A stretch of DNA of 64,000 bases from an uncultured Gemmatimonadaceae bacterium (GCA_963740355.1 CAVUDW010000003.1:1312001-1376000), one strand, 5' to 3'. Numbered from the stretch's first letter, positions 8,482 to 8,977 are shown. The notes: generated by a model not told the origin, from the letters alone. Numbers and translations are program-made.

Positions 8482-8489
8482 ACTGCCTC

Positions 8490-8660
8490 CAGGTGACGAC
8501 CGCGCGCGCCCTGCCTTGCGAGATGCGGGATCGCGTCGGCGTCCCTGGTAGCTGTCCGGGCTTGTAGCGATCGGGACGACGGCGCTCTGACTCTGCGACG
8601 GGCTCACGGCGCCCGGGGCGCTCCGAACGAGCTGCCGCCGTCCCGGAGATTTAGCTTCTG
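8490..8660 (-). ncRNA. Putative bridge RNA of the IS110 element (ends approximate)
   Basis: Two stem/internal-loop domains. Loop segments CGCAGAG and GCGCC match the target. ACAGCTAC and GCAAG match the donor junction. Confidence 0.8.
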
Positions 8661-8977
8661 TGCGAGGAGACATACAAGGCGCAGAGGCGCAGAGGGCTCT
8701 TCGTTAATAGCAGCCAATCGATACCATATCAGGACAAAAGGCTTTGGGAACTGCTCTCGCAGTTGCAGTTCCCAAAGCCCTCGTTTGCCCCTCGATGCGC
8801 GACGATGCATGCTGGCGCGGTAGAACCCTCTGCGCCTCTGCGTCTCTGCGTTTCGCCTTCGCAGTTGCTGTTCTGCGGCTGTTCTGTTCTGCGGCTGTTG
8901 CAGTATCGCAGTTTTCTGTTCTGCGTTAAAGCAGTTTGCAGTTTGTAGTTTGCAGTTGCAAAGCAGAATTGGAGAGA

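Follow-up and report, generated by a model that had tools for sequence, protein, structure and literature searches.

According to Durrant et al (2024, PMC11208160), 85.7% of IS110 elements are predicted to encode a bridge RNA. As described for IS621 of Escherichia coli, the 3′ side of an RNA loop is complementary to the core and the right half-site, and the two handshake bases that follow each 3′ guide fit the other DNA (PMC11208160, PMC11208158). The left target guide of IS621 spans A50–U58 (9 nt) and its right target guide G77–G80 (4 nt); the right guide was extended to 7 nt by engineering in order to raise efficiency (Hiraizumi et al, 2024, PMC11208158). The wild-type IS621 target is given as ATCAGGCCTAC, and right target guides in the family as ranging from 4 to 7 nt (Durrant et al, 2024, PMC11208160). 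Related variants of this scheme have been reported. The seekRNA or bridge RNA of the IS1111 group works with the same recombinase family and the same guide logic, and is located in a long right end (PMC11208160). ISPpu10 of Pseudomonas putida, also an IS110 element, is described in a preprint as having all its insertions in copies of one intergenic repeat that can form a stem-loop; this stem-loop, a GC-rich 5′ extension of the target, is shown there to matter (bioRxiv 10.64898/2026.03.19.712850).

The locus described here lies in a 64,000-nt stretch of DNA from an uncultured Gemmatimonadaceae bacterium, which was analysed as a whole and is referred to as the window. Comparison of the flanks of seven copies delimits a 1146-bp insertion sequence of the IS110 family at window positions 8676–7531 on the minus strand, with the ends TGTATG…CAGCTA. 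We conclude with high confidence that it is an intact, recently active IS110-group element whose 195-nt left end, judged from sequence, is the gene for an IS621-type bridge RNA. The identification of the RNA is supported because both its structure and the pairing of its guides with DNA covary in two sets of relatives. The features of the locus are listed in the table.

Table. Features of the element and its flanks, in window coordinates (5′ to 3′ order on the minus strand)
Feature	Position	Strand	Basis
Left target (LT) TCTGCGC, last unit of the host CTCTGCGN repeat	8679..8685	-	flanks of 7 copies
CT core, left copy	8677..8678	-	junctions of 7 copies
Left end (LE), 195 nt, non-coding, predicted bridge RNA gene	8482..8676	-	R1 match at 8499–8650, 110.5 bits
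Target-binding loop domain: outer stem CGGGACGGCGGC-A-GCUC / GAGCGCCGUCGUCCCG, inner hairpin 8599–8615	8572..8645	-	MFE fold
Left target guide, matched part GCGCC = LT positions 4–7 + core C; 5′ loop side 8616–8628	8617..8621	-	
Right target guide CGCAG+AG = reverse complement of core + RT (CT-CTGCG)	8591..8597	-	sequence, covariation
Target-loop handshake guide UC; U (8590) fits donor position 7 (A)	8589..8590	-	
Donor-binding loop domain: basal AUCG/CGGU, outer GCCC/GGGC, inner hairpin 8527–8545	8499..8571	-	covariation
Left donor guide ACAGCUAC (ACAGCUA+C) = last 7 nt of right end + core C, 8/8	8548..8555	-	
Right donor guide, split: AU 8524–8523, CUC bulge, G (wobble to T), CAAG 8518–8515; pairs with CT-TGTAT	8515..8524	-	
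Donor-loop handshake guide GC; complementary to target positions 7, 6 (C, G)	8513..8514	-	
Shine-Dalgarno-like GGAGG, 4 nt upstream of ATG	8486..8490	-	sequence
Recombinase gene, 311 aa, DEDD RuvC-like + Tnp domains; D7, E50, D92, D95, S230	7546..8481	-	Pfam, NCBIfam, IS621 8wt6 alignment
Right end: −35-like TTGACT 7549–7544 (overlaps stop codon) + left donor ACAGCTA 7537–7531	7531..7549	-	
CT core, right copy	7529..7530	-	junctions of 7 copies
Right target (RT) CTGCG, 5′ arm of small palindrome CTGC-GTTTT-GCAG	7524..7528	-	right flanks 7/7

The genome (5.45 Mb, 65% G+C) carries the seven copies at 96–100% identity. In all of them CT is present at both junctions, and it is the sole sequence that the two junctions have in common; the ends TGTATG… and …CAGCTA do not form inverted repeats. 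On the left, GCGC directly precedes CT at all seven sites and TCTGCGC does so at six, the remaining site having ACC at positions 1–3. On the right, CTGCG directly follows CT at 7/7 sites. The left end of 195 nt and the right end of 15 nt past the stop codon define the layout of the IS110 group as opposed to that of IS1111, in which the RNA sits at the other end. R1, a covariance model built from relatives of the same bacterial family (set 1), was run on the genome and matched exactly the seven element places. All copies lie on the "-" strand of their own contigs; a strand bias is nevertheless not clear among these seven, as GC skew runs in opposite directions on contigs C2 and C3, so that five copies are on the leading strand and two on the lagging strand.

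The layout has much in common with that of IS621. The RNA precedes a DEDD/Ser recombinase in the left end, the core is CT, and the two internal-loop domains are ordered with the target loop first and the donor loop second. In both systems, the 3′ loop sides are complementary to the core and the right half-sites, and the 5′ sides correspond to the top strand of the left half-sites, in the target loop of this element over 5 of 8 positions. Moreover, the left donor guide comprises 8 nt up to and including the core C, the right donor guide is discontiguous and contains a G-T wobble (A157-U158/G161/C162-G165 in IS621), each right guide is followed on its 3′ side by handshake bases, and the right end carries a −35-like box. 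Even the linker G-U after the inner hairpin and the bulged A in the outer stem recur. In contrast to IS621, the right target guide has 7 nt instead of 4, and the left target match covers 5 nt with the core T unpaired instead of 9 nt. The bulge of the right donor guide has 3 nt here and 2 in IS621, and the 31-nt leader is without the stable 5′ stem-loop of IS621 (−0.9 kcal/mol). Host and target differ as well, with a CTCTGCG repeat in a member of the Gemmatimonadaceae replacing ATCAGGCCTAC in Escherichia coli.

The MFE fold of 8482–8678 contains the stem CGGGACGGCGGC(A)GCUC / GAGCGCCGUCGUCCCG around a loop with the inner hairpin CGGGC..GCCCG, as had been proposed in a sequence-only reading of this DNA. 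Its energy is −91.8 kcal/mol (z = −2.68), a stability reached by 2 of 200 shuffles. The fold was then compared among relatives, which were collected as recombinase homologues in 28 of 200 genomes of the same family (42–60% protein identity) plus extra copies from multi-copy genomes. Twenty-four leaders were aligned; multi-copy duplicates were dropped, as were L019 (unpublished genome), L025 (RNA largely deleted), and, for want of a left end on the contig or because of a truncated gene, L016, L029, L031, L034–L037, L044, and L048. In these 24 leaders, 94.7% of the cells of the named structure are paired and 18 of its 26 pairs show compensatory changes, whereas none of 500 shuffles reaches the observed value and slid controls are paired to at most 48.1%. 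Folding together with homologous IS110 ends, the check that the sequence-only reading had suggested, consequently backs the structure. Helix 1 of the target domain is paired in 93.1% of cells among the 24 relatives, with 8 of 11 pairs changed on both sides, and the covariation of this helix confirms the first stem.

The donor domain has to be redrawn. Its closing helix had been read as CCGG…GCAAGG; covariation instead supports GCCC (8561–8558) with GGGC (8511–8508) and AUCG (8571–8568) with CGGU (8502–8499). In helices 4–6 of this domain, 8 of 12 pairs are changed on both sides. RNAalifold, applied to the same 24 leaders, predicts 30 pairs, 21 of them compensatory; its extra pairs between left and right donor guide (columns 125/126 with 183/184) probably reflect the shared descent of two sub-clades and were excluded from the tested structure.

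The model also recognizes more distant elements. In a public genome collection, R1 matches over its full length, immediately 5′ of the recombinase gene, at 75 of 80 loci. It likewise matches 5 of 7 plasmid loci from enterobacteria or Paraburkholderia. Four plasmid loci of E. coli, Salmonella, and E. albertii were considered as possible sources of IS621; the two plasmid proteins that were compared are relatives of IS621 and not IS621 itself (E = 3.1e-49 and 2.6e-48 to 8wt6), and their leaders score 40.2 and 17.5 bits with R1. An Rfam scan of 7300–9000 with E values up to 10 yielded 11 weak matches, none of which lies over 8482–8678 or reaches the gathering score.

The strings on which the sequence-only reading was built were all found on the minus strand where it had placed them (GCGCC at 8617–8621, CGCAGAG at 8591–8597, and ACAGCTAC at 8548–8555). 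They differ in what they are worth on their own. Among 20,000 dinucleotide shuffles of the left end, CGCAGAG arises in 1668 and ACAGCTAC in 20, and the two never occur together. GCGCC arises in 14,282 (71%) and is by itself not above chance.

In the donor loop, the identity of ACAGCTAC with the right end plus the first core base holds over 8 of 8 positions. Its conservation was assessed in relatives whose right boundary had been set independently by the right target guide: the left donor guide equals the right end at 7/7 positions in 17 of 19 elements, at 6/7 in one, and at 0/7 in one with its best match in a flanking repeat, while five elements gave no match. The corresponding count of 104/105 in set 1 is circular because there the right-end boundary was found with the left donor guide. 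On the other side of this loop, GCAAG had been said to pair with CTTGT of the left end. It does so by way of a G-T wobble, but the split layout with AU and the CUC bulge, as well as the handshake bases, had been missed. AU, CAAG, and the left-end TGTAT are all invariant in the 24 relatives, so that this pairing is without support from covariation.

Covariation of guides with host DNA was evaluated by re-pairing guides and flanks among elements, in set 1 and in a second, independent set. Set 2 derives from the 80 loci of the public collection (Dehalococcoidia, Binataceae, delta- and gammaproteobacteria, and others) and comprises 57 further distinct RNAs from other phyla, 45 of them usable. The right target guide forms 90 of 100 possible Watson-Crick pairs with RT in set 1 (20 of the 24 elements, four being without a usable right flank), compared with 36.5±6.4 after re-pairing (0 of 10,000), and 211 of 225 in set 2 (76.2±10.0; 0 of 5000), under permutations that ignore relatedness among elements and hence overstate significance in both sets. 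The complementarity of CGCAGAG to the core and the right target is thereby borne out. The left target guide follows LT in the same manner, with 121/176 pairs in set 1 (86.3±4.2; 0 of 10,000; 22 elements, two others having no left flank) and 279/360 in set 2 (187.8±7.0; 0 of 5000). The conclusion of covariation is still safe because many different pairs of guide and flank contribute, and it is found among the homologues of both sets.

For the handshake bases, agreement between the first base of the target loop and donor position 7 is found in 21/21 elements of set 1 (16.4±1.1 expected) and in 39/45 of set 2 (0 of 5000 shuffles). For the first base of the donor loop and target position 7, the agreement of 19/22 in set 1 is not significant (reached in 1521 of 10,000 shuffles); in set 2 it amounts to 40/45 (29.7±1.6; 0 of 5000). 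The second handshake bases give no signal in set 1 (7/21 against 6.7 and 7/22 against 7.5). When the bases are instead compared with their cognate DNA as a control, set 1 yields 1/22 and 0/21.

The host sequence that the target loop would read is repetitive. The genome has 32 occurrences of GCGCCTCTGCG, where 13.5 are expected, and 13 of the 14-mer TCTGCGCCTCTGCG, where the expectation is 0.13. Most copies of the target belong to a repeat built as GCAGTT-(CTCTGCGN)n-TTTGCAGT. The genome has 32 arrays of at least two exact CTCTGCGN units, of which 7 form inverted pairs spaced 134–1518 nt apart; at the element (window 8679–8960 and 7300–7528), CGCAGAG x3 and CTCTGCG x3 are separated by 134 nt. 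The piece of intergenic DNA beside the element recurs 55 times in this genome and 2–54 times in genomes of the same genus. At the orthologous loci of five such genomes, the flanking genes are adjacent with neither repeat nor insertion sequence between them, and an orthologous empty target was not found there; paralogous sites were used for the comparison with empty sites. The target context is REP-like, a setting known for IS110 elements from work cited by Durrant et al (2024, PMC11208160) and from the ISPpu10 preprint (bioRxiv 10.64898/2026.03.19.712850). Unlike in ISPpu10, where the stem-loop extends the target on its 5′ side, the palindrome is found here on the side of the right target, with a putative role. 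In 6 of 7 right flanks, CTGCG pairs with a nearby inverted arm of 4–5 bp. Several matching target sites in the genome are unoccupied.

The two target guides match their DNA over different lengths. The right guide CGCAGAG fits CT-CTGCG at all seven sites, and the right guide comprises 7 nt in every relative aligned. For the left guide, the best register gives 5 of 8 positions: the upstream loop bases GGA face TCT, and the next base, a C, is unpaired with the core T. The sequence-only reading had equated GCGCC with the target beside the core; both the match and its position stand, although the string occurs by chance as noted above, and it counts only because the left guides of relatives occupy the same place in the loop. 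The same reading had contrasted a right guide of 7 nt and a left match of 5 nt with the reverse balance in IS621. The lengths are right, but the 7-nt guide is a trait of the clade and, on the aligned sequences, not peculiar to this element, and the short left match is no outlier. It lies at the low end of the range, being the lowest value in set 1, where three others share it, and 11 of 45 elements of set 2 score 5/8 or below; 5 bp may be normal.

What the short left match means for target choice can be read in two ways. In the sub-clade with the ends TGTATG/ACAGCTA, the base facing the core T in the seven elements with known flank is C, G, G, G, C, C, and A, and never U, whereas the other sub-clade mostly has U at this place. 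It is conceivable, and we put this forward tentatively, that the left target guide of the sub-clade ends at the first core base and that the target is set mainly by the 7-nt right guide and the adjacent REP-like hairpin. If true, this would be a natural "right-guide-dominant" bridge system with fidelity rules of its own. Alternatively, a real bridge RNA may have a left target guide that is mis-tuned to this host, such that CTCTGCG insertions occur mainly via the 7-nt right guide and perhaps the target hairpin, as relaxed or "half-match"-like events. The loop sequence GGAGCGCC indeed resembles the guide UAGCGCUC of a relative that reads a CAGCGCT-CT site, and the sole genomic site with a longer left match (GGAGCGCCTCTGCG, one copy) is unoccupied. 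The 5/8 match with GGA facing TCT points in the same direction, yet values this low or lower are also found in set 2, as given above. Likewise, positions 1–3 look unconstrained given the one site in seven with ACC in place of TCT, while GCGC-C is exact at 7/7 sites, as expected if those five pairs are required. A contribution of the hairpin would agree with the palindromes of 4–5 bp that involve CTGCG in 6/7 right flanks and with ISPpu10, for which the target stem-loop is described as acting as a specificity determinant (bioRxiv 10.64898/2026.03.19.712850); a half-match insertion is part of the published work on IS621. On balance, we regard a mis-tuned guide as unlikely.

A different objection concerns the RNA itself. 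The left end could be only a structured 5′ leader that serves translation or stability of the recombinase message, with the guide matches being coincidental or reflecting recognition of the ends by the protein at the DNA level. The RNA directly adjoins the Shine-Dalgarno site, and GCGCC is not above chance. However, the loop bases vary together with the unrelated host flank of each relative (90/100 and 211/225), and a leader would have no reason to track its own insertion site. Further, the handshake bases follow the non-cognate DNA, and coincidence is countered by the joint occurrence of the 7-mer and the 8-mer in 0 of 20,000 shuffles. A leader without guide function is thus very improbable, and the bridge RNA is retained as the reading of the left end.

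The gene downstream agrees with this assignment. From the ATG at 8481, it encodes a protein of 311 aa that matches PF01548 (1.3e-26, residues 4–143) and PF02371 (2.1e-15, residues 186–268) and scores 211 bits with NCBIfam NF033542, "IS110 family RNA-guided transposase" (cutoff 140). Among PDB sequences, ISCro4 is the best match (9t56, E = 1.2e-35, residues 3–303), with the same domain order and catalytic motifs, a likeness drawn from the protein alone; IS621 is only distantly similar (8wt6, E = 5.8e-33). D7, E50, D92, D95, and S230 align with the IS621 motifs GID, IEATG, KTDtVDAR, and ESG, and their mapping to D11, E60, D102, D105, and S241 of IS621 assumes an offset of 2 between the PDB chain and native numbering. 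That the gene instead begins at 8673, so that the frame 8673–7546 of 375 aa, open from this ATG across the entire left end, would code for an N-terminal extension in place of an RNA, is scarcely credible in view of Pfam and NCBIfam domains that begin at residue 3–4 of the 311-aa form, alignments with IS621 and ISCro4 that start at their residues 8–10, GGAGG 4 nt ahead of the ATG at 8481, compensatory base changes in the left-end stems, and a genome of 65% G+C in which long open frames are expected by chance. The 375-aa frame (7546–8673, minus strand), with its ATG inside TGTATG and in phase with the recombinase across the whole left end, could be annotated by a gene caller, and the RNA gene would then be hidden.

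How the RNA would be made is suggested by the element ends. Joining right and left end places TTGACT 17 nt from TATGTC (8674–8669), a weak candidate −10 that agrees with TATAAT at 3 of 6 positions and is without the final T. TTGAC lies exactly 19 nt before the element end in 14 of 21 relatives of set 1 and in 24 of 50 of set 2; a gammaproteobacterial group has it 4 nt closer to the end and has GATAAT in the left end. In the integrated context, a scan for consensus promoters returned no promoter on the minus strand. For IS621, the excised circle is published as the source of expression (PMC11208160, PMC11208158), and this layout would agree with it. A search of sequencing records for 7480–8740 turned up no RNA run; one run of unspecified kind contained 0.40 of the sampled words. 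By analogy with IS621, from which we infer transcription, the junction promoter, and the dependence of recombination on RNA, the following course may be envisaged. After excision, the joined ends would give rise to the junction promoter and the RNA would be transcribed from it. Its first internal loop would hold the target, and the second the junction of the element itself. A tetramer of the DEDD/Ser recombinase could then exchange strands at the CT cores, assisted by handshake bases that fit the other DNA, namely the U behind the right target guide and the GC behind the right donor guide. The natural target would be the last unit of the REP-like host repeat, …CTCTGCGC-CT-CTGCG-hairpin.

A 12-bp G+C-rich hairpin occupies 7550–7579, at the extreme 3′ end of the recombinase coding sequence and directly before TTGACT. 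It is called by a terminator scan on the plus strand, and relatives have inverted repeats at this place as judged by eye. The hairpin could act as an insulator of the junction promoter or as a binding site for a protein.

Taken as a whole, the claim of a two-loop bridge RNA in the style of IS621, with CT as the core and with loops that read the element ends and a host repeat, is upheld by the covariation of structure and of guides with DNA. The donor and target specificity, which the sequence-only reading had called new, is the element's own, as it is for every natural element, and can be called new in this trivial sense only. What the locus offers is a natural bridge-recombinase system with clear boundaries, from a soil phylum that has been little studied. 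Its parts are readable (donor ACAGCTA-CT-TGTAT, target GCGC-CT-CTGCG, and the handshake bases), and about 80 aligned relatives obey the same rules. It may serve as a catalogue entry and possibly as an orthologue for engineering, and it is a natural example of the full-length 7-nt right guide that was engineered into IS621. Existing knowledge is unchanged, since most IS110 elements already have a predicted bridge RNA and RNA guidance is already part of the name of the protein family; the system is a well-supported, ordinary addition to the two-loop bridge RNA system described in 2024.

Several relatives show individual features. In L028, the right junction after ACAGTTG reads CC and not CT, which the published near-invariance of the core T (Hiraizumi et al, 2024, PMC11208158) would allow solely as a mutation or as a core that was resolved wrongly. 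One of two copies in another genome, L025 (G187:C1, 1410–1497), has a left end of only 86 nt in which the bridge RNA is mostly deleted while the gene and the ends are kept; its paralogue L046 is intact, and L025 may depend on RNA supplied in trans. On the E. coli plasmid NC_023327.1 (L050, 485–505), the flank upstream of the left end resembles the donor junction of another IS110 element, ACAGTAT-CT-TGTATG, suggesting that one element has inserted at or beside the end of another. Finally, two related elements in L069 (115–461) are arranged head to head with a gap of about 55 nt, and a separate bridge RNA match accompanies each of them (98.3 and 103.1 bits).
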